Shown piece after piece: positions 2,008-26,151 of a DNA stretch of 31,073 bases. How positions within the stretch are numbered: position 1 is the stretch's first letter; each line of letters begins with the position of its first letter. The stretch lies in IMG/VR virus record IMGVR_UViG_2602041669_000008. One strand, 5' to 3'. Under the pieces are notes generated by a model, which saw nothing but the letters and a program-made list of their open reading frames with translations, ran no database searches and was not told the origin of the DNA. The DNA comes from a virus (Duplodnaviria; Heunggongvirae; Uroviricota; Caudoviricetes). The translations under genes and the position numbers were made by a program.

Positions 2008-2649
2008 TTAAAAATAGTTTCCCTTTCCAGTTAAGATTCCGTGTGGAACGCTTTTTTCCGCAAGTCTCTGTGTGCCGCGAATTATGTTAATCAGAGGGCT
2101 TAGTAACGATGGTTCCTGGCGTGCCTCAACTTCTCCAGCCATTGCCCTGATGTAGTCGGCGCTGGCAACGTTGTTGTATTCCGTCGCAAAGCAACATAGT
2201 AACGTCAGAACATGCTCTGTCGTTATTTCGCTCCAGTTGATGTTGAAAAATTCATCGCCTTTTTTATCGTGTTCGGAATCGAAGATGCTTTGGTGGAGGA
2301 TGTATTTGCCGGATTCCTTGCGCGGTAACTTGATCGCTTTCTGGCGTTCCAGCTCCTTGTAAATCTGCATTGCTTCAATCAGTACCGGCCTGCCGTTCAT
2401 GAAGGGATCGCGCAACCTTACACGCTGGCCAACTCGACCAGTAATAAAGCTGTTTTCCTCTTCCACCAGCACGATAAAACCCTTTTCCTCTTTTTCTCGC
2501 AATTCGCGCAGCAGCTGGAGTTCCATATCGCGGCGGCGTTCAGGGTAGCTGGTCCGCTCAGCCATTATCAGCTCGTTATTGATCCATGCAGCAGTCATTG
2601 ACGCCGGTTTGCCGACGCTCATCGAAACAACGCATATTTTCTTATCCAT
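2008..2649 (-). CDS. Hypothetical protein (213 aa); occupies the position of mat in the P1 order
   Basis: Internal ATG 2647-2649 with GGGGG 5 nt upstream, in frame with track ORF 2008-2796; no family recognised. Confidence 0.55.
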   Translation of the reverse strand: MDKKICVVSMSVGKPASMTAAWINNELIMAERTSYPERRRDMELQLLRELREKEEKGFIVLVEEENSFITGRVGQRVRLRDPFMNGRPVLIEAMQIYKELERQKAIKLPRKESGKYILHQSIFDSEHDKKGDEFFNINWSEITTEHVLTLLCCFATEYNNVASADYIRAMAGEVEARQEPSLLSPLINIIRGTQRLAEKSVPHGILTGKGNYF

Positions 2650-2838: not shown

Positions 2839-3399
2839 TTAGTGCATGATGTTTGCCATCTCATAGGCGTCAGCCAGTAACTCCATCTCTGACTTTTTCA
2901 GCAAGGTGAATTCTTTCTTGCCTCCAACCACACCATCGGCATGAACAGGGACCAGCCAGGGGTATTTTTCTCTTACTTCAGCCGGTGCTGCATGCTGGTG
3001 GTGCCATCTACAAAGTGGCAACTGCTTTTTGTGACAACCCGGCGCGGTACGACCGGAGATATGGTGCAGAGACACCTCTTCAGATATTACTCCATGCATA
3101 TAGCAGGCAATGCAGGGGAGAGCGCCAAGAGCATTGGCTATACGCCGTTCCTCCGCCGTCGGTGTTCGTCCCTTCAAGCCACGAGATTTTATTTTTACCG
3201 CACTTTTCCGCGTTTTGCTGGCTGGTGGGCGCTCTTTCTGTTTAGCGATACGGCGGTCGATAGAATCCCGCATTTTCTGATATTGCGATTCTCTCCAGGC
3301 GGGGTCAGCCAACTTTTCCCGTTGCCGAGCGATCGCTCGTTCTCTGGCTGCCTTCTGCCACTCGCGGCGCTGTTCAAGTTTTTGTTCGATTGTTTTCAT
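2839..3399 (-). CDS. ref: Ref-type HNH nuclease (186 aa; basic disordered N-terminus, Cys/His HNH motifs)
   Basis: ATG 3397-3399 in frame with track ORF 2839-3477; motifs CIACYMHG...HHISGR...CHKK...CRWHHQH; length and position next to cre match P1 Ref. Confidence 0.75.
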   Translation of the reverse strand: MKTIEQKLEQRREWQKAARERAIARQREKLADPAWRESQYQKMRDSIDRRIAKQKERPPASKTRKSAVKIKSRGLKGRTPTAEERRIANALGALPCIACYMHGVISEEVSLHHISGRTAPGCHKKQLPLCRWHHQHAAPAEVREKYPWLVPVHADGVVGGKKEFTLLKKSEMELLADAYEMANIMH

Positions 3400-3404
3400 A
3401 TGGC

Positions 3405-3430
3405 AAAAAAAAGGCGGCCTAATGGCCGCC
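3405..3430 (-). terminator. Strong intrinsic terminator on the minus strand ending 6 nt before the ref ATG
   Basis: Plus strand reads A8-GGCGGCC-TAAT-GGCCGCC, so the minus-strand RNA is a perfect 7-bp stem followed by U8. Confidence 0.7.
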
Positions 3431-3490: not shown

Positions 3491-3514
3491 ATTATAGCAA
3501 TCAATTAGAGCAAT
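3491..3514 (-). promoter_or_regulatory. C1 operator-like site (ATTGCTCTAATTGATTG, 14/17) abutting a TATAAT -10 on the minus strand
   Basis: Direct read; -10 TATAAT is plus 3491-3496 reverse-complemented; operator 3498-3514. Confidence 0.55.
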
Positions 3515-3580: not shown

Positions 3581-3650
3581 TGATTGATTGGATGCGGAAT
3601 ACAAACCCGCTCTTTTGTGCAGCCTGGCTCCTTGCCAGGCTTTTTTATTT
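3581..3650 (+). ncRNA. Candidate small RNA (about 70 nt): extended -10 promoter, 5' motif UGAUUGAUUGG, intrinsic terminator
   Basis: TGcTATACT at 3566-3574; motif at 3581-3591; stem GCCTGGC/GCCAGGC (3622-3640) followed by TTTTTTATTT; no plus-strand ORF. Confidence 0.35.
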
Positions 3651-3956
3651 CATCATGGAAGCTGTTAACGCTTTGGATCTTGCTGAACTGATTGAAAGGG
3701 CATTGTTTACCTTACCCAGGAGTTCGCCAAATTCCGCCATCACTCTAGTAAGCCCGCGCCGCGCTTCCTCCTCCGTTGCATTCATCACAAAATGTTCAGC
3801 ACTCCGCATGCTTTTAACGGGGAACGCAACAGATATCGAGTCGATATCAGGCATCCTATCGCTCAACTTTACGGTGACAATGACAGATGGTGACTGAATT
3901 TGAGAGCTTACAGACAGCACCACATATTTTCCGTCTATTTTGAAATCCTTCCGCAT
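3645..3956 (-). CDS. Hypothetical protein (103 aa) directly downstream of cre
   Basis: Track ORF with protein-like composition; GGTGA 4 nt upstream of the ATG; the overlapping plus-strand ORF 3565-3897 is less protein-like. Confidence 0.5.
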   Translation of the reverse strand: MRKDFKIDGKYVVLSVSSQIQSPSVIVTVKLSDRMPDIDSISVAFPVKSMRSAEHFVMNATEEEARRGLTRVMAEFGELLGKVNNALSISSARSKALTASMMK

Positions 3957-4006: not shown

Positions 4007-5038
4007 CTAGTTGCCATCTTCCAGCAGGCGCACCATTGCCCCCGTTTCACTATCCAGGTTACGAATGTAGTTCATGACAATATTTACGTTGGTCCAGCCA
4101 CCAGCTTGCATGATCTCCGGTATTGAAACTCCGGCGCGGGCCATATCTCGCGCGGCACCGACACGGGCACTATGTCCAGACCAGGCCAGGTATCGCTGAC
4201 CAGAGTCATCTTTTGCCCCGTAAATCAATCGGTGAGTTGCTTCAAAAATCCCTTCCAGGGCGCGAGTTGATAGCTGGCTGGTGGATGATGGCGCGGCAAC
4301 ACCATTTTTTCTGACGCGGCAAAACAGGTAGTTATTCGGATCATCAGCTACACCAGAGACAGAAATCCATCGCTCAACCAGTTTAGTTACCCCCAGGCTA
4401 AGTGCCTTCTCTACACCAGCGGTGCTAACCAGCGTTTTCGTTCTGCCAATATGGATTAACATTCTCCCACCGTCAGTACGTGAGATATCTTTAACCCTGA
4501 TCCTAGAAATTTCGGCTATACGTAACAGGGTGTTATAAGCAATCCCCAGAAATGCCAGATTACGTATATCCTGGCAGCGATCGCTATTTTCCATGAGTGA
4601 ACGAACCTGGTCGAAATCAGTGCGTTCGAACGCCAGCGCCTGTTTTGCACGCTCACCGGCATCAACGTTTTCTTTTCGGATCCGTCGCATGACCAGTGAA
4701 ACAGCATTGCTGTCACTTGGTCGTGGCAGCCCGGACCGACGATGAAGCATGTTTAGCTGGCCCAAATGTTGTTGGATAGTTTTTACTGCCAGACCACGCG
4801 CCTGAAGATATAGAAGGTAATCGCGAACATCTTCAGGTTCTGCGGGAAACCATTTCCGGTTATTCAACTTGCACCATGCCGCCCACGACCGGCAAACGGA
4901 CAGAAGCATTTTCCAGGTATGATCAGAAAACGCCTGGCGATCCCTGAACATGTCCATCAGGTTCTTGCGAACCTCATCACTCGTTGCATCGACCGGCAAT
5001 GCAGGCAAATTTTGGTGAACGGTTAACGAATTAGTCAT
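4007..5038 (-). CDS. cre: Cre site-specific tyrosine recombinase (343 aa)
   Basis: Translation is near-identical to canonical P1 Cre as I remember it; differences noticed: N-terminus MTNSL instead of MSNLL, E39D, two A-to-S changes, C-terminal D-to-N; loxP lies about 820 bp upstream. Confidence 0.97.
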   Translation of the reverse strand: MTNSLTVHQNLPALPVDATSDEVRKNLMDMFRDRQAFSDHTWKMLLSVCRSWAAWCKLNNRKWFPAEPEDVRDYLLYLQARGLAVKTIQQHLGQLNMLHRRSGLPRPSDSNAVSLVMRRIRKENVDAGERAKQALAFERTDFDQVRSLMENSDRCQDIRNLAFLGIAYNTLLRIAEISRIRVKDISRTDGGRMLIHIGRTKTLVSTAGVEKALSLGVTKLVERWISVSGVADDPNNYLFCRVRKNGVAAPSSTSQLSTRALEGIFEATHRLIYGAKDDSGQRYLAWSGHSARVGAARDMARAGVSIPEIMQAGGWTNVNIVMNYIRNLDSETGAMVRLLEDGN

Positions 5039-7479: not shown

Positions 7480-8598
7480 TTATTCAGCCGCCACCGGTTT
7501 TAACAAGCCAGCATCGAGCAGTTTACGCGTCAACCACTGCTGGCCTTTACCCGTTAATTGGGGCGTCAGCCGTATCTGGTAGCCATTTTCATCATCCAGC
7601 ACCACTTCTTTCACCGTGAAATACCCCGCGTTGATGTACTGCTGGAACGGCACATTTTTACGTCCACCGGACGCTATCAGGATGCCGTTCTCCCGTAACC
7701 AGACAAACAGCGCGTTTTGCTTAAGTCCAACAACCTTTGCAAAATTCCCAATCAGGATCCCTTTAGCTACTGATACCCGGTCGGCAAAATCGACTTTAGG
7801 AGCGGCGGCCACCAGCTGCTGATTTAGCTGGTGGGCTTTCTGTTCCAGAAGTTGCTTTTGTTCAGCCAGTTCGGCAGCCAGGCGTAGGGCTTCAGGAAGC
7901 GTCTGGGGGATTGCGATCGGTTGCTGTTCTTTTTGTCGGAAGTAGCTGTCTTCCAGTTTTTCAAAGAATGCCCATGCCTGATCGGTTTCGAGCATTTTAG
8001 CGTGGCGGGCTGCGCCGCGTTCTGTCCAGAGGGTGAGTGAGCGAACATTGCGAGCAATTTTTACAGAGTAGTTTAAAGCTACTCTGTGCTTCAACTCGCG
8101 CAATGATTCTCCTTCAACTTTGAAAAAGTGCTTCCCTTCAACAAAGCGTACTTTGTTCTCATGATGATTTTGGCGAATACGGATTGTTTCTGTCCCATAC
8201 CCTCTAGCAAGAGTCTCGGTTGTCACTACACGCACTCCCTGCCATTCCAGAACGGGAATTTCATCAGACTGATTCTGAACAACCACCAGCTCCGATTCCT
8301 GAACTGAAGGTGCATGAATTTTTTCTAATTTAACGTTATTTGCTTTCATTCTGTGTGCCTCCTTGCGTGCTTCGGCTGCGACGGTTGCGTAATTCAGATG
8401 ACCCTGTTCGAGCAGGTATTCACGGATATCAGACAACAGGATACGGTGAACCGCGTTCTTGTCCTTTCTCCGGTAAAGTTGTTTGGTGATCATGAAGTAG
8501 TTGGCAATAACGCCTGGTATATCCCTGGTACTGATACAGGCAGTGTGCTGTTCAATTGCCTCGATAATCTCTTCACGGGTGACTAATGACGTTCTCAT
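7480..8598 (-). CDS. ant: Antirepressor (372 aa; Bro-N/Rha-like N-terminal region, KilAC-type C-terminal domain)
   Basis: Track ORF; C-terminal motif ...VAKGILIGNFAKVVGLKQNALFVWLRENGIL...; start overlaps the icd-like stop (ATGA). Confidence 0.8.
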   Translation of the reverse strand: MRTSLVTREEIIEAIEQHTACISTRDIPGVIANYFMITKQLYRRKDKNAVHRILLSDIREYLLEQGHLNYATVAAEARKEAHRMKANNVKLEKIHAPSVQESELVVVQNQSDEIPVLEWQGVRVVTTETLARGYGTETIRIRQNHHENKVRFVEGKHFFKVEGESLRELKHRVALNYSVKIARNVRSLTLWTERGAARHAKMLETDQAWAFFEKLEDSYFRQKEQQPIAIPQTLPEALRLAAELAEQKQLLEQKAHQLNQQLVAAAPKVDFADRVSVAKGILIGNFAKVVGLKQNALFVWLRENGILIASGGRKNVPFQQYINAGYFTVKEVVLDDENGYQIRLTPQLTGKGQQWLTRKLLDAGLLKPVAAE

Positions 8599-8816: not shown

Positions 8817-8981
8817 ATTGGCAGCCTCCTTAGACGTTGGTATGTAACCACCGCAGAAGAGACCAATCTTGCTGGCGGTGGACTGTACGGAGTTGGCCTT
8901 ACTGGCGTCCAAGGTAACCAGCCTACCCGAAGGTAGCCCCATACAGCCCACCATTGTAGAGGTGTGCGTGTACGCCGATAC

Positions 8982-9125
8982 AAAAAAAAGACGCGAGCGG
9001 CGTCTGTATCGCCTTAGACTTAAGCGGGAGGCCAATCCCGGCACCCGTTTTAATGAGGTGCCTGATAAGCATAAACCGAAAATGCCTCAAGGCGCAAGAG
9101 GTCAGGCTCAATGTAACATCGGTAG
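8982..9125 (-). ncRNA. Candidate c4-like structured leader/antisense RNA upstream of icd-like copy B
   Basis: Begins just below the operator at 9136-9152; hairpins GGCACC/GGUGCC and CGGGA/UCCCG; ends in stem AGACGC/GCGUCU plus U8 (8982-9005); no ORF. Confidence 0.35.
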
Positions 9126-21470: not shown

Positions 21471-21688
21471 TTTGTCGCTCCTTCAGCTTTCTCTACTTTC
21501 GCTGCCATGATTTCCAGCTTTTGTGCTGCCGATGCCGCTAACCTGTGAAATTCTTCATCTGTTTCAACTGGAATTGGTACAAACCTGACACCAATTTGAG
21601 CAAGGCTATGCGCCATTTCGAGACTTGCTCTTAACTCTGCTGGGGATGCTTTATTCAGGCCGACTTCCTCACAAATAACTGATTGCAT
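21467..21688 (-). CDS. Small hypothetical protein (73 aa)
   Basis: Track ORF; start overlaps the upstream stop. Confidence 0.5.
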   Translation of the reverse strand: MQSVICEEVGLNKASPAELRASLEMAHSLAQIGVRFVPIPVETDEEFHRLAASAAQKLEIMAAKVEKAEGATK

Positions 21689-21697
21689 ACGCTCGCC

Positions 21698-22423
21698 CTA
21701 CTGAATACGCTCAAACTCGATTACCCAAACCCAGGGATTAGCACTCCAGCTTTCTTCGCCGTAGATGGATTCCCACAGGCGCTGGAACGCAACCTTGGCC
21801 ATTGCGAAATCCCCCTTGGGAGTAAGGAATGTTCCCGGGTGATCAGGAAGCAAACTTCCAGCAGGCGGAACGCCCTCATCCCTTGCATCGCATTCGCTGA
21901 TATCGTTCAACCGCTCAACGCGCACGTTGGTAATTTCCAACAGGATGCGTGATGCCCATCGCGGCATGTGAATTGATGGACGCCACCCACCATCAAACTT
22001 TTCATTCACAGTGTGAGGTTTCCAGTCGGCATCATCGGGTATCGACCATAAACCGTAATCACCAGGCTTTTGCTCACAACTGGCCCGATAAATCCTTGCT
22101 GCGTTCTTCTCATCGCCACGACAAAGGTTGTCGTTCCAGTCCACACTGCAACCATCTTCATTGCCTAATATCGCCCATGTTTCACGAACCCAAATTCGAT
22201 CGCCGACGATACCAAAGGGGCAATTGAAAACACTGCTTACACCATCAGCCCCGTACCACTGAAAACCTGCACCAATTTCCCTAACCATCACTGGTGCTTC
22301 TGGACCAACTTCCGCAGGCTGATTTTTCATTATCCGCCGCGCCTGCGTTTTCCTTCCTTCGAGGATGGCTCGGACCATCTCATCGTTGAAAATCATGCCG
22401 CGCTCTTTCACTTCGCCTTTCAT
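21698..22423 (-). CDS. ASCH/PUA-like domain protein (241 aa)
   Basis: N-terminal motif FNDEMVRAILEGRKTQARR resembles the ASCH signature; AGGGGGA upstream of the ATG. Confidence 0.55.
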   Translation of the reverse strand: MKGEVKERGMIFNDEMVRAILEGRKTQARRIMKNQPAEVGPEAPVMVREIGAGFQWYGADGVSSVFNCPFGIVGDRIWVRETWAILGNEDGCSVDWNDNLCRGDEKNAARIYRASCEQKPGDYGLWSIPDDADWKPHTVNEKFDGGWRPSIHMPRWASRILLEITNVRVERLNDISECDARDEGVPPAGSLLPDHPGTFLTPKGDFAMAKVAFQRLWESIYGEESWSANPWVWVIEFERIQ

Positions 22424-22432
22424 GCATCCCCC

Positions 22433-22519
22433 TTACCCATGCGCGACGATGCCGCCAAAAGTGATAGAGAACAGCCAGAAATAGATCGAGGCCATAATGA
22501 TTTTGAATGCCGTGTTCAT
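22433..22519 (-). CDS. Candidate 28-aa hydrophobic peptide (type I toxin-like)
   Basis: MNTAFKIIMASIYFWLFSITFGGIVAHG; AGGAG 8 nt upstream of the ATG, preceded by CCAATCAATCA; stop is 9 nt before the next ATG. Confidence 0.3.
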   Translation of the reverse strand: MNTAFKIIMASIYFWLFSITFGGIVAHG

Positions 22520-22528
22520 ATTTTCAGC

Positions 22529-22578
22529 TCCTGTGATTGATTGGATACATGCCGCGCCTTACGGCATGTTTTTATTTT
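22529..22578 (+). ncRNA. Candidate antisense small RNA overlapping the RBS of the 28-aa peptide gene
   Basis: CATATT -10-like hexamer at 22517-22522; motif TGATTGATTGG at 22534-22544; stem CATGCCG/CGGCATG (22548-22568) followed by TTTTTATTTT; no plus-strand ORF. Confidence 0.3.
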
Positions 22579-22601
22579 CACTTTCTCTGTTTTAAAAATC
22601 A

Positions 22602-22618
22602 AGATTTATTAGAGCAAT
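22602..22618 (-). promoter_or_regulatory. C1 operator-like site (ATTGCTCTAATAAATCT, 16/17)
   Basis: Direct read; overlaps the stop codon of the HAD-like gene. Confidence 0.6.
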
Positions 22619-23124
22619 TATTGTTGATGGAGAAGCGCGTTTTCATACTCCCTGACCATTAACGTAAGTACGCCGTGACTCCTGAAAACACGCGCCACTT
22701 CAATCTTATCTTCCAGCGCGAACGCAATTTTACTTAGACCAATTTTCTTCAGGAGATCAATCTTTGCTGGACCGTCATTTCTGTCATCGGTGGCAGGACG
22801 CATAGATAGCAAAGGCTCCGCCCCATTTGTTACGTGCTTACGCAACCAGGCTCGTGTTTTATCCCTGGCTATCTCACAGCGCCCGGTTACAAACCAGAGG
22901 GTGTAAATGCCGGACAACTGGCGCACCATATCAATAACTGGAGTGATGGGAGCATCAGTGTCACAGGCAAGGTTAAACTCGTTCCAGTGCTCTGTTAATG
23001 CACCTTTGCCAGGTGGTGGAAGTAAATGCAGCCTGTCTTCCGTTGCCTCTGATATCGTCCCATCAATATCTACTATGACGATGTACGGACGTTCCTGGTG
23101 TGCGTGTTTATTGAAAATACTCAA
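22618..23124 (-). CDS. HAD-superfamily phosphatase-like protein (168 aa)
   Basis: Motif IVIVDIDGT (DxDGT); TTG start with GAGGAGG 4 nt upstream. Confidence 0.65.
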   Translation of the reverse strand: MSIFNKHAHQERPYIVIVDIDGTISEATEDRLHLLPPPGKGALTEHWNEFNLACDTDAPITPVIDMVRQLSGIYTLWFVTGRCEIARDKTRAWLRKHVTNGAEPLLSMRPATDDRNDGPAKIDLLKKIGLSKIAFALEDKIEVARVFRSHGVLTLMVREYENALLHQQ

Positions 23125-23143
23125 ATGCCCTCCTCATTGGACG

Positions 23144-23176
23144 AAAAAAATGCTGGTGGGAGCACTCCACCAGCAT
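23144..23176 (-). terminator. Intrinsic terminator on the minus strand between the 420-aa gene and the HAD-like gene
   Basis: 10-bp perfect stem ATGCTGGTGG/CCACCAGCAT followed by U7 on the minus strand, ending just before the HAD RBS. Confidence 0.55.
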
Positions 23177-23196
23177 TAAAAGTGACACTGTAACTA

Positions 23197-24459
23197 TCAG
23201 CGAACGTAAATAGTGCCGCCGTTCTCTTTTTCCCATGCATCGCTACGTGCATAGCAAACATCGAGAAGTCTTCTTGCCGCAGTTTCCTCTAAACCCAATT
23301 CGACAACCAACTGCTCATGACGGCGGGTAACCACATCAAACAGGGTATGCAGCCCTTTAGTTGCCAGATCATCAATGAATTCCGGTTCGAACGGCAGCTC
23401 TGCATCTGCCAACATAACCTCTTGCGCCCACTCAACTCGACGGACCAATTCCGGGCGACGGCTTTCCATCTCTTTACAGATCAATTCATGGAAGAACTCT
23501 ACCCAACCTTCCGGCTGGAACTCGCGGAAAATTGCCAACGGCTGGAAGTTTGGCATCAACCATTCGTTGATTCGGATATCAATGGCATAGCCCATGTCGC
23601 AGCAGAACTGATAAGCAAAGTCCAGCTTAGAAACGATATAAGGACGCTCGTTATTGAACTCTTTAGGCGATGAGATCCCATAAGCCAGGAGGCGCGGGAA
23701 GAAGGAGATTTGCCCTAACGTCGGATGAAGTTTGCTTGCAGGGAAACGGCGCTCAGTAATGCCATACATTTCCTTCTTGAGCGTCGCAAATTTGGCATTC
23801 TCATTAACCAGCGCGGTAACCTCTGCTTTTTTATTAGCAAATGCCACGCGCGCCTCGCTTGCATCTTTAATAGTTTTTTTGAGCTGTTGGTTAAGGTCGG
23901 CGACCTGCTTACGCAGTTCCTGTCGCTCGCTTTTAGCTTTGTTATAGCGTTTCTCAAGGTTAAAAGGATCAAGTTTCATGATCTCTTTATATTGAGATTT
24001 TAGCGTTGAAATCTGTGAGTTCCGCAGTTCAACCATCGCGGTCATTTCATTGAGTTTTGTTTCCAGCTCAATGCTTATACGTTCGGCATTATCAGCACGC
24101 TGGTTGGCGTCATGCGTCGCATCGTCGATCGCGTCCTGTTGCTGGCGTTTCAAATGTTCAATTTCCAGCTGAAGCTCTTCAATTTCTTTACCCTTCAGAC
24201 CGAGATCCAACTGCATATTTTCAGCTGCATCTACCAGGGAGTTATGGCTATCAGCTTCTGCGTTATAAACATCAATAAGCTGTGCGTGAAGCATCTCCGC
24301 TGACTGAACCGCATTATCAAAAAAACGTGCTGTGAGGTCATCACAACTAACGCGGCGTTGCGCGGCCCGGATGTTCTGGATAATGGCCGGGATACCGGCA
24401 TTCAGGACATCAGGGATACATACATTTTCGATTGATTGGTTTTGTGCTGAAGTGCTCAT
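23197..24459 (-). CDS. Hypothetical protein (420 aa; coiled-coil N-terminal half)
   Basis: Track ORF; CCAATCAATC lies within the first 10 codons. Confidence 0.65.
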   Translation of the reverse strand: MSTSAQNQSIENVCIPDVLNAGIPAIIQNIRAAQRRVSCDDLTARFFDNAVQSAEMLHAQLIDVYNAEADSHNSLVDAAENMQLDLGLKGKEIEELQLEIEHLKRQQQDAIDDATHDANQRADNAERISIELETKLNEMTAMVELRNSQISTLKSQYKEIMKLDPFNLEKRYNKAKSERQELRKQVADLNQQLKKTIKDASEARVAFANKKAEVTALVNENAKFATLKKEMYGITERRFPASKLHPTLGQISFFPRLLAYGISSPKEFNNERPYIVSKLDFAYQFCCDMGYAIDIRINEWLMPNFQPLAIFREFQPEGWVEFFHELICKEMESRRPELVRRVEWAQEVMLADAELPFEPEFIDDLATKGLHTLFDVVTRRHEQLVVELGLEETAARRLLDVCYARSDAWEKENGGTIYVR

Positions 24460-24460
24460 T

Positions 24461-24679
24461 TCAAAGTTCCGTATTAGCTTGTGCTTCGGTCATTTTTCCT
24501 AAGTATGAAGGAGGAAGGACTACGCAATTTGTATCCAGTCCCTCACCTATGGCAGCCTGTAAAATTCTGGCTAAGGTGAGTCTCTTGTTGCGATACCTGG
24601 TGATGACATGCCTGATACCGCCGGTCGGCGTAACAAAGGCGATCAGCCAGTAGTGATATTTCCGTCGGAATGGCCACAT
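24461..24679 (-). CDS. Small hypothetical protein (72 aa)
   Basis: Track ORF; AAGGTG 5 nt upstream of the ATG; a C1 operator overlaps its promoter region. Confidence 0.5.
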   Translation of the reverse strand: MWPFRRKYHYWLIAFVTPTGGIRHVITRYRNKRLTLARILQAAIGEGLDTNCVVLPPSYLGKMTEAQANTEL

Positions 24680-24693
24680 AGTGCACCTTGTAG

Positions 24694-24710
24694 ATTGCTC
24701 TAATAAAAAA
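24694..24710 (+). promoter_or_regulatory. C1 operator-like site (ATTGCTCTAATAAAAAA, 14/17)
   Basis: Direct read; in inverted orientation to the site at 24743-24759. Confidence 0.5.
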
Positions 24711-24734
24711 CGTGATGAGTGTACATCACGTTTT
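24705..24734. terminator. Bidirectional terminator-like hairpin between two C1 operators
   Basis: A-run, stem CGTGATG/CATCACG, then TTTT. Confidence 0.45.
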
Positions 24735-24742
24735 AAAAATAT

Positions 24743-24759
24743 GGAATTATTAGAGCAAT
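24743..24759 (-). promoter_or_regulatory. C1 operator-like site (ATTGCTCTAATAATTCC, 14/17)
   Basis: Direct read; immediately after the stop of the glycosyltransferase-like gene. Confidence 0.45.
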
Positions 24760-24760
24760 A

Positions 24761-25462
24761 TTATTCTGATTCTCGCTCAAAAAATGAGCTGATAAGGGGA
24801 AGCCAATCCTCTGACACTTCGCGAGGTCGCGGTTTGCCGTGGAAAAAGATTATTCGGCAGTCTTTTGGTAATGCCCCATTCCCCCTGGAGTAACGCGCGC
24901 TCGCATATTTTGAACCAGGTTCCACAACATCGGCCTTGTAACTTACAAACCATCCTGGATACAGATCCTGAAATGCTGGTGTATCATCGCCCATAACCTT
25001 TCGTAAGAACCCCTGGTCACCCCAACACTCAGTAGTGACACAACGAGAAATCCAACCTTCCGGATCTTGCCAGAATGAACTCCAGATATGCGCTTTAACA
25101 CTATTTGGTATCCACAGGGCACCGCTGCCACGATATTGTGGATGGTAAAAATCCCTAAGCATGGTGAAGCTGGTTGGTGGATGCTCTAGGATTGGGCGTA
25201 TATCACCGGCAATAACCGTGTCCAAATCCAGATAGAACAGATCATCGGTTATATCCGGTCGGAACAACTCGATTTTCGCCCACCAGCCACGGCACTTTTG
25301 CCACTGGTTGATCAATGGGACAACTTTGACGCCAGGTACATGTAAACGCTTCAGGTCTGTCAGGCAAATAATTTCATAGCCTTTTGGCAGTTGATTAACC
25401 AGCCACTGCACATCGGAAGCGTTATAGTCACCACCAGAGCGAAAAACTAAAGCAATCTTCAT
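24761..25462 (-). CDS. Putative nucleotide-sugar glycosyltransferase-like protein (233 aa)
   Basis: DxD-like motif YLDLDTV with upstream W-rich segment; start overlaps the stop of the phosphatase gene. Confidence 0.5.
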
Positions 25463-26151
25463 GCTGCACCATCACCTTTCACTTTCATCAATGTCAGGTT
25501 TCCGCAAAATACGGCACCAGTGTCGATATACTGCTGATTCCAGAATGTCTTCGGGCTTTTCACCGGAGTGTGACCAAAGATAAAACGATCTGCGCCCGAA
25601 ATTTCGCCACCAATATCATCCATCGAATCACTGATACGCTCGCGCGCCCAGACAACGTTGAAAAGCGGCACCTCCTTACCGAATTGGTATTCATTATCCG
25701 GATAGTCGGCATGGGCTATAACGATAGTTTCTTGCCCGGTGTTCAACTCAATGATATAGGGCAGACGCTTTACCAGCTCCACCAGCGCCCAGGCTAATAT
25801 TTCCTGATCAGTGTCCAGCATGAAGAACCATTGTCCGCCATTCATTAGCCAGTTATTCACGTTGCCATCTGGACTTAACGCATCAATCATCAGCCGCTCA
25901 TGGTTCCCCATCACTGCCCTGAACCAGGGCATCTGCAATAGTTCCAGACATTCGACATTTTCAGTACCGCGATCGATAAGGTCGCCGACCGATATCAGTA
26001 AATCCTGCGCCGGGTCAAAATCCACACGATGGAGTTCGGACATCAGTCTGGTGTAGCAACCATGCAGATCACCAACAACCCAGACATTCCTGTATTTGGT
26101 ACCGTCGATACGGTGATAAATTGTGGGTGCCATCATGTATTCTTCAGCCAT
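25459..26151 (-). CDS. ppp: Ser/Thr protein phosphatase, lambda-PPase-like metallophosphatase (230 aa)
   Basis: Motifs GDLHG, GDLIDRG, GNHE. Confidence 0.85.

Follow-up and report, generated by a model that had tools for sequence, protein, structure and literature searches.

Partial terminators within gene clusters are known from bacteriophage T7, where T-phi lies past gene 10, and from E. coli, where an attenuator separates rplL from rpoB. In phage P1, attenuator-antiterminator control was reportedly proposed for the ref gene by Windle, Laufer and Hays in 1988, so the idea that ref is governed by read-through of a terminator is not new. Lpa, which acts in late P1 transcription, has been described as an activator and not as an antiterminator. 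According to a 2023 study, direct evidence for a P1 antitermination protein is absent, but there are 'strong indications' (PMC10695390).

The DNA considered here, hereafter the window, is a 31,073-nucleotide stretch from a tailed-phage record and is a P1-like phage-plasmid. Positions 21500-25500 match phage P1 and its relatives P7, SJ46 and RCS47 by megablast at 98-99% identity in reverse orientation, hence the genes of interest lie on the minus strand of the window. In the direction of minus-strand transcription the P1 annotation (AF234172, Lobocka) gives the order pmgQ, OpmgRa/PpmgR/OpmgRb, pmgR (24679-24461), pmgS (23197-24459), pap (22618-23124, TTG start), OpmgT with P1/P2pmgT, and pmgT. 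OpmgRa and OpmgRb are C1 operators, formerly named Op86a/b, and pmgS closes the pmgR-pmgS unit, which is under C1 control. OpmgT (22602-22618, minus; older name Op88) is a C1 operator that overlaps the pap stop and begins the next transcription unit. At the opposite end of the window lie cre, c8, ref (3399-2839) and mat.

A strict terminator scan, requiring a perfect stem of at least 6, a dG of -9 or lower and a U-rich tail, returned eight sites in the window against 0.43 ± 0.76 expected from 30 dinucleotide shuffles. Looser scans gave 26 sites against 16.6 expected and 30 against 15.6. All four strong sites on the minus strand end at most 30 nt 5' of a start codon, those of pmgR, pap, ref and mat. 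The recurring terminator-then-start layout that the original prediction had seen besides ref is therefore real. Its further suggestion, that the recurrence hints at regulated read-through or programmed polarity, is supported in part because the cases differ in kind: no single mechanism unites an operon-end terminator at pmgS-pap with leader terminators at ref and mat.

Several other features of the window accompany these sites. Two immI-like modules lie on the minus strand (8871-9061 and 1271-1477), each behind a C1 operator (9152-9136 and 1557-1541), with two matches to the C4 antisense RNA and a single one each to isrK and c4-a1b1; isrK has its terminator in the U8 hairpin at 9005-8989. The hairpins at 222-247 and 7809-7834 are identical and point to a direct repeat ~7.6 kb apart that flanks the cre-c1 region, and the segment 7480-9150 between pacB and c1 has no P1 match in partial alignments. 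Strong hairpins at 3621-3641, just past the c8 stop, and at 22547-22569, in the leader of pmgT immediately past OpmgT, are terminators for the plus strand only, antisense to genes, and may block antisense transcription. An identical 13-mer, ATCCAATCAATCA, sits past both of these hairpins and before an SD (3581-3593 and 22534-22546, minus), where 0.06 matches are expected. A CAATCAATCA core also precedes SDs in Cronobacter phage JK004, including its ref leader, in the JK004-like contig L196 and in Salmonella plasmids; the sites include L005 ~4421-4432 and L086 ~3909-3919, and the 13-mer may be a translational or RNA-processing signal. Between OpmgT and pmgT lies an unannotated 28-codon hydrophobic ORF with an SD (MNTAFKIIMASIYFWLFSITFGGIVAHG; 22433-22519, minus), and small homologues of it (MH..FKLA..AFY.W...) are found at the corresponding position of JK004, L196 and Salmonella plasmids.

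The hairpin between pmgS and pap

Read 5' to 3' along the minus strand, the TGA stop codon of pmgS (23199-23197) is followed by a 19-nt spacer, the stem arm AATGCTGGTGG (23177-23167), the loop AGTGCTC, the 3' arm CCACCAGCATT (23159-23149) and TTTTT (23148-23144). Beyond the U-run come CGTCCAAT, the Shine-Dalgarno sequence GAGGAGGG (23135-23128), CAT and the TTG start of pap (23124), with 3 nt between the Shine-Dalgarno sequence and the start codon. As RNA the hairpin reads AATGCUGGUGG-AGUGCUC-CCACCAGCAUU, followed by five more U, CGUCCAAU, GAGGAGGG, CAU and TTG. The hairpin thus spans 23149-23177 with a 7-nt loop, and the U7 tract spans 23144-23150, of which 23149-23150 are able to pair with AA of the stem. 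The stem can be counted as 11 perfect pairs, or as nine G/C-rich pairs plus two A-U pairs, and the unbroken U-run as seven, two of them pairable. The 10-bp perfect stem with U7 originally predicted before the ribosome-binding site is accordingly present, with the stem corrected to 11 bp.

Intrinsic terminators were judged by a G/C-rich stem of 5-14 bp, a loop of 3-8 nt, stability above background, a 3' U-tract and maintained pairing. The pap site, with 11 bp and a loop of seven, folds at -18.1 kcal/mol against -7.5 ± 2.3 for shuffled sequences (z -4.66), and none of 200 shuffles folds as well. Free-energy scoring, proposed earlier as a check, gives z -3.6 for the ref hairpin (dG -16.2) and z -0.8 for the mat hairpin (-11.7), the latter being unremarkable by energy alone. 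The U-tracts are U7 at pap, U8 at ref and UUCUUUUUU at mat, while the plus-strand tails are not U-rich. At pap the plus-strand tail is the A-rich AAAAGTG, hence the hairpin is a terminator for the minus strand only.

Conservation of the structure, the other check proposed, is found in relatives at all three sites. A scan of IMG/VR with P1 PmgS returned only P1 loci of 99-100% identity, which are usable for polymorphism but not for deep covariation. Across ~80 such loci the variation of the hairpin is concentrated in its loop (AGTGCTC, AGTGCGC, AGTGCGTC, AGTGCAC and ATTGCGC). Of four changes in the stem, three are compatible with wobble pairing, and the U-run is 6 to 8 long. Phage JK004, with a PmgS 70% identical to that of P1, carries a homologous hairpin, GCUGAUGGG-UUCGCG-CCCAUCGGC with U8, in the same place. 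The JK004 junction runs as in P1, through the U-run, CG(T/C)CCAA.., GGAGGG and a TTG pap start. A second IMG/VR scan with JK004 PmgS as query added a few divergent loci (L196-L200). In an alignment of the P1-group variants with JK004 and L196, pairing holds in 96.6% of cells; one pair shows a compensatory change from G-C to A-U, and four changes are wobble-only. Pairing is likewise maintained at ref, in GGCGGCC versus GACGGTC stems, and at mat, with other loops and partly other stems.

The downstream gene, taken as HAD-like in the original prediction, is pap. Its product resembles a HAD-type polynucleotide 3'-phosphatase according to the P1 annotation and a Pfam HAD_PNKP match (E 2.9e-11), and contains the DIDGT motif. 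High-identity matches number ~650 for Pap and ~680 for PmgS, and pap is present in nearly all P1-group plasmids; a genome-contig scan with Pap found just two near-identical E. coli loci. L196, whose PmgS is 94% identical to that of JK004, has the same terminator with U8 but lacks pap, and the C1 operator of its pmgT unit lies ~50 nt past the terminator. Plasmids of the pCFSAN058588 type from Salmonella are likewise without pap, and a weak hairpin with U6 is all that stands before the C1 operator of the pmgT unit. In both P1 and JK004 the pap stop overlaps the OpmgT operator. As the terminator is kept in relatives without pap, and the pap stop overlaps the operator, pap is cargo, inserted exactly into the space from an operon-end terminator to the operator that follows. 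By its position, conservation and presence or absence, the hairpin belongs to pmgS and not to pap. Its location just before the next start is unavoidable since the pmgS-pap gap is only 72 nt. The central example is therefore an ordinary terminator, and its placement follows from tight packing and cargo insertion.

A consensus scan, which can miss weak or unconventional promoters, found no promoter-like site between pmgS and pap. Nor is a pap promoter listed in the P1 record, which places PpmgR/Op86 before pmgR and Op88/PpmgT after pap, and the distance from the U-run to the pap start codon is only ~20 nt. Expression of these genes has been recorded by RNA-seq of P1vir as gene-level log2 fold-changes against a no-phage control (PMC8201110, Table S1). 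At 10 and 30 min these are 7.05 and 11.66 for pmgQ, 9.02 and 10.81 for pmgR, 9.99 and 11.70 for pmgS, 8.45 and 11.23 for pap, and 9.72 and 11.66 for pmgT (PMC8201110, Table S1). Because such values are relative to a no-phage control and their normalisation is uncertain, comparisons between genes are rough; read in this way, pap at 10 min groups with the PpmgR unit, well above the upstream unit and at most ~3-fold under pmgS. Within-gene changes are robust to normalisation, and between 10 and 30 min pap rises 2.1-fold more than pmgS in the wild type and 2.8-fold more in dksA. When the host is delta-hfq, pmgS and pap co-vary, and pmgQ, pmgR and pmgT shift the opposite way. As no promoter was found after the terminator, pap would be transcribed by read-through. 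The RNA-seq data show that this read-through happens, and hint that it increases late.

Hairpins before pmgR, ref and mat

The hairpin before pmgR, with its U-run, lies between the inverted C1 operators OpmgRa and OpmgRb (24709-24732, minus) and ends ~20 nt 5' of pmgR. The predicted -10 of PpmgR (24735-24730, minus) overlaps the 5' arm in the window, so transcripts from PpmgR would start inside the stem and escape termination while upstream transcripts would stop. JK004 and the Salmonella plasmid pCFSAN conserve this hairpin with a changed stem and have a TATCAT hexamer in the loop. The control region as a whole (24694-24759, minus) is a large palindrome of two inverted C1 operators around the hairpin and U-run, kept in both JK004 and pCFSAN with compensatory stem changes, and it appears to unite a terminator, a promoter and an operator in one element.

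The ref hairpin (3413-3430, minus) is followed by a U8 run (3412-3405) that ends 5 nt before the ATG at 3399. The C1 operator Oref and the TATAAT -10 of P2ref (3491-3514, minus) lie ~60-80 nt upstream. JK004 and pCFSAN have the same ref leader layout with another stem, GACGGTC/GACCGTC (GACGGUC/GACCGUC as RNA). A terminator between a gene's own promoter and its start codon is found at both ref and mat, and since their promoters lie upstream of the terminator these hairpins are leader terminators, or attenuators. The pap hairpin lacks this layout, being preceded by the pmgS coding sequence with no promoter found.

The mat hairpin, AAGCCGCC-GCT-GGTGGCTT (2689-2671, minus; AAGCCGCC-GCU-GGUGGCUU as RNA), is followed by the U-rich tail UUCUUUUUU (2670-2662). 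Between this tail and the ATG at 2649 are 12 nt, one fewer than originally predicted, within which lies AGGGGG. Given its modest folding energy, the terminator is credible because it is conserved in JK004, pCFSAN058588, Klebsiella/Citrobacter plasmids and pYU39-type plasmids.

The position of this hairpin relative to mat depends on the start codon. For Mat the P1 record (NC_005856/AF234172, 2716-3468) uses an ATG that maps to window 2760, 37 codons upstream of 2649 (window = 5476 - x, where x is the P1 coordinate), which means that Mat as annotated would be translated through the terminator hairpin. In many P1-like loci the G-run or U-run that separates the two ATGs contains a 1-nt indel, leaving 2760 out of frame, and in JK004 and pCFSAN the frame upstream of mat holds a stop or frameshift. 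These frame-breaking indels exclude 2760 and bear out the original choice of 2649. Other annotators begin the protein at ATGGATAAG. On this comparison of sequences the reference P1 start is taken to be wrong and the ATG at 2649 (P1 coordinate 2827) to be the true start, giving a mat coding sequence of 2008-2649 (minus) and placing the hairpin within the 5' UTR.

Upstream, the late promoter LPmat and the sigma-70 promoter Pmat share a -10, CAGAAT (2780-2785, minus; P1 2691-2696). At their predicted transcription start begins a structured domain of ~65 nt (2708-2774, minus), for which RNAalifold gives a 9-bp closing stem, an inner hairpin with the loop CUUUUCAAA and a third, small hairpin. Eight sequences retain all 13 modelled pairs, three of these pairs with compensatory changes on both sides, and the fold is the MFE structure in each of three lineages separately. 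A covariance model of the domain (R1) finds no second site, indicating one copy per genome. Neither the leader nor its terminator appears in the annotation of the P1 record or in an Rfam family, and a literature search on LPmat/Pmat gave nothing relevant.

Mat homologues ~35% identical are encoded by Klebsiella/Citrobacter plasmids and by pYU39-type plasmids of E. coli and Salmonella. Their leaders keep the order of parts: a promoter-like TTGAC..CATAAT, a closed structured domain (inner loop CUUUUGAC), a linker, GGCCGC..GCGGCC with U5-7, an SD and the start. The R1 model misses the Klebsiella and pYU39-type leaders, hence the resemblance is one of architecture and is not statistically aligned. 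The gene on the upstream side of mat is divergently oriented in pYU39-type plasmids, which leaves mat's own transcript as the sole target of the terminator. A Vibrio mat homologue has a hairpin without a U-run, and a metagenome scan with a 17-mer from a non-P1 mat leader gave 101 matches, none of them a true leader. Among distant plasmids, ref is truncated in Klebsiella, and in Vibrio the ref terminator stands directly past the upstream gene, away from the ref start. Adjacency of ref and mat is nevertheless retained in very distant Klebsiella and Vibrio plasmids (L377 and L379), including Klebsiella IncF-type replicons. Mat homologues occur in 992 PLSDB plasmids, 130 of which are typed as conjugative, so Mat is not restricted to P1-like phages.

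In the P1vir data ref is an early gene, its log2 fold-change moving from 8.29 at 10 min to 10.05 at 30 min, and mat is purely late, moving from 5.08 to 11.64 (PMC8201110, Table S1). It follows that little early ref transcription reaches mat. As mat is switched on late, with LPmat and Pmat upstream of the terminator, late transcription must also pass it. The mat hairpin looks like a true, undescribed attenuator in a conserved leader, and its terminator probably keeps mat silent until late LPmat transcription overrides it. Leader-peptide attenuation was considered and rejected: the upstream ATG at 2760 has no SD, and its frame, interrupted by indels among P1-like loci, varies with lineage, so a ribosome-mediated mechanism is unlikely. 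No convincing pairing that competes with the terminator was found in the mat leader, and none was seen for ref or pap. The simplest function for the ref and mat leader terminators is to damp leaky C1-repressed promoters in lysogens, with read-through when promoters fire at a high rate. Overall, read-through control is a reasonable general idea, with literature precedent at ref and, at mat, new and fairly good support on the level of architecture.

Read-through, antitermination and other explanations

The pap hairpin is probably an operon-end terminator, constitutive and of partial efficiency, which at the same time acts as an expression divider for promoter-less cargo. According to the proposed mechanism, the hairpin at 23177-23149 would end the C1-repressible pmgR-pmgS unit as a canonical Rho-independent terminator and insulate it from the unit beginning at OpmgT/PpmgT. 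The accessory gene pap, placed in the gap between terminator and operator with a strong SD and a TTG start but without a promoter of its own, would be transcribed only by polymerases that initiated at PpmgR, or upstream of it, and then passed the terminator. Since pap would be reached only via read-through, the terminator would fix its expression as a fraction of that of pmgS. The programmed polarity raised in the original prediction survives here as the best reading for pap, expressed solely by the read-through fraction. One observation runs against this explanation: a strong hairpin with U7 should terminate efficiently, yet pap RNA nearly matches pmgS RNA. Hence the terminator would be either leaky in vivo or suppressed. 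By itself the hairpin is routine and accounts for the expression of a promoter-less accessory gene; more broadly, C1-controlled P1 units appear to be insulated from each other by terminators.

Suppression is the basis of the strongest alternative, which we regard as possible though clearly the less likely. A phage factor, either a protein or a cis RNA such as the mat domain, or a late polymerase modified by Lpa/SspA, would suppress the ref, mat and pap terminators in lytic growth, and the terminators would be switches rather than fixed dampers. Regulated antitermination of this kind is consistent with a leader-terminator layout at ref and mat that is kept across lineages, at mat down to ~35% protein identity, and with the pYU39-type arrangement, where the divergent upstream gene limits the terminator to mat's own transcript. 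It would also suit the purely late rise of mat from a promoter 5' of its terminator and the late increase of pap beyond pmgS. The purely late expression of mat is, however, accounted for by a strong late promoter and a partial terminator without any factor. Sequences resembling boxA or nut are not enriched (15 against 11.7 expected), there is no common sequence element upstream of the ref, mat and pap terminators, and the mat domain is single-copy. The leaders match no Rfam family, a search with the ref, mat and pap sites giving nothing at the gathering threshold or at E <= 5. Likewise, at the level of sequence, membership of the lambda N/nut or HK022 put systems is not indicated by the boxA-like counts or the Rfam search. 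Direct evidence for a P1 antiterminator is itself absent according to the 2023 study (PMC10695390).

A bolder form of the idea is rather doubtful, namely that the mat leader is an undescribed P1-family cis-regulatory RNA gating the late maturation-control gene through conditional read-through, and that together with ref and pap it marks an antitermination footprint. If true, it would be the footprint of the long-suspected P1 antitermination system. The ref, mat and pap sites in any case offer three defined places at which to test that old question.

It is improbable that the pmgS-pap hairpin serves mainly in RNA stability or processing, as a protective 3' end of pmgRS or a processing site, with pap expressed from an unrecognised promoter within or after it. 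The idea gains from two other terminators in the window that are overlapped by predicted promoters starting inside the stem, PpmgR (24732-24709) and P1ref at the ref hairpin, and from a pap RNA level near that of pmgS, the latter being a rough between-gene comparison. Against it, the vicinity of the pap hairpin holds no -10/-35 match, the best candidate, TTTAAT, having no A at position 2 and no -35, and the start codon follows the U-run after only ~20 nt. A promoter inside the hairpin was rejected, as the window has no consensus match and nothing promoter-like is conserved at this position in JK004. Finally, a functionless chance inverted repeat, which has only the A+T-rich intergenic context in its favour, is refuted both by shuffling (none of 200 shuffles folds as well; eight strong sites against 0.43 expected) and by conservation, as pairing survives substitutions and the hairpin is retained in the 70%-identity relative JK004.

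Comparison with known systems

With the pmgS-pap hairpin read as a partially efficient operon-end terminator, the nearest parallels are intra-cluster terminators of the T-phi and rplL-rpoB type. In these, as at pap, a G/C-rich hairpin with a U-tract lies between co-oriented genes, and a downstream gene without a promoter receives only the read-through fraction, which for pap is predicted. They differ in that pap is variable cargo and not a fixed operon member.

The mat leader invites comparison with lambda Q/tR' and HK022 put, as it combines a late promoter, a ~65-nt structured RNA at the 5' end, a terminator within ~110 nt and then the gene. It differs from both in that no Q-like protein and no qut, nut/boxA or put homology was detected. 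Riboswitches and protein-controlled attenuators resemble it in having a folded domain, here with compensatory changes, followed by a terminator and an SD. In contrast to these, the mat leader has no Rfam match, and no convincing antiterminator pairing was found in it.

The IsrK/C4 immunity-region leader RNAs of P1-like prophages share a C1-operator-controlled promoter and a short terminator-ended RNA (isrK, 8984-9061), and the system combines a functional RNA with genes reached downstream via read-through. The isrK hairpin belongs to a curated sRNA family, whereas the ref, mat and pap sites belong to none.

A further close system is the ref attenuator proposed in 1988, which has the same replicon and layout as the ref site of the window: a C1 operator and promoter, a leader of ~60-80 nt, a hairpin with U8 and the start codon. 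The mat site follows the same logic. The pap terminator departs from it in following a coding gene and not a promoter.
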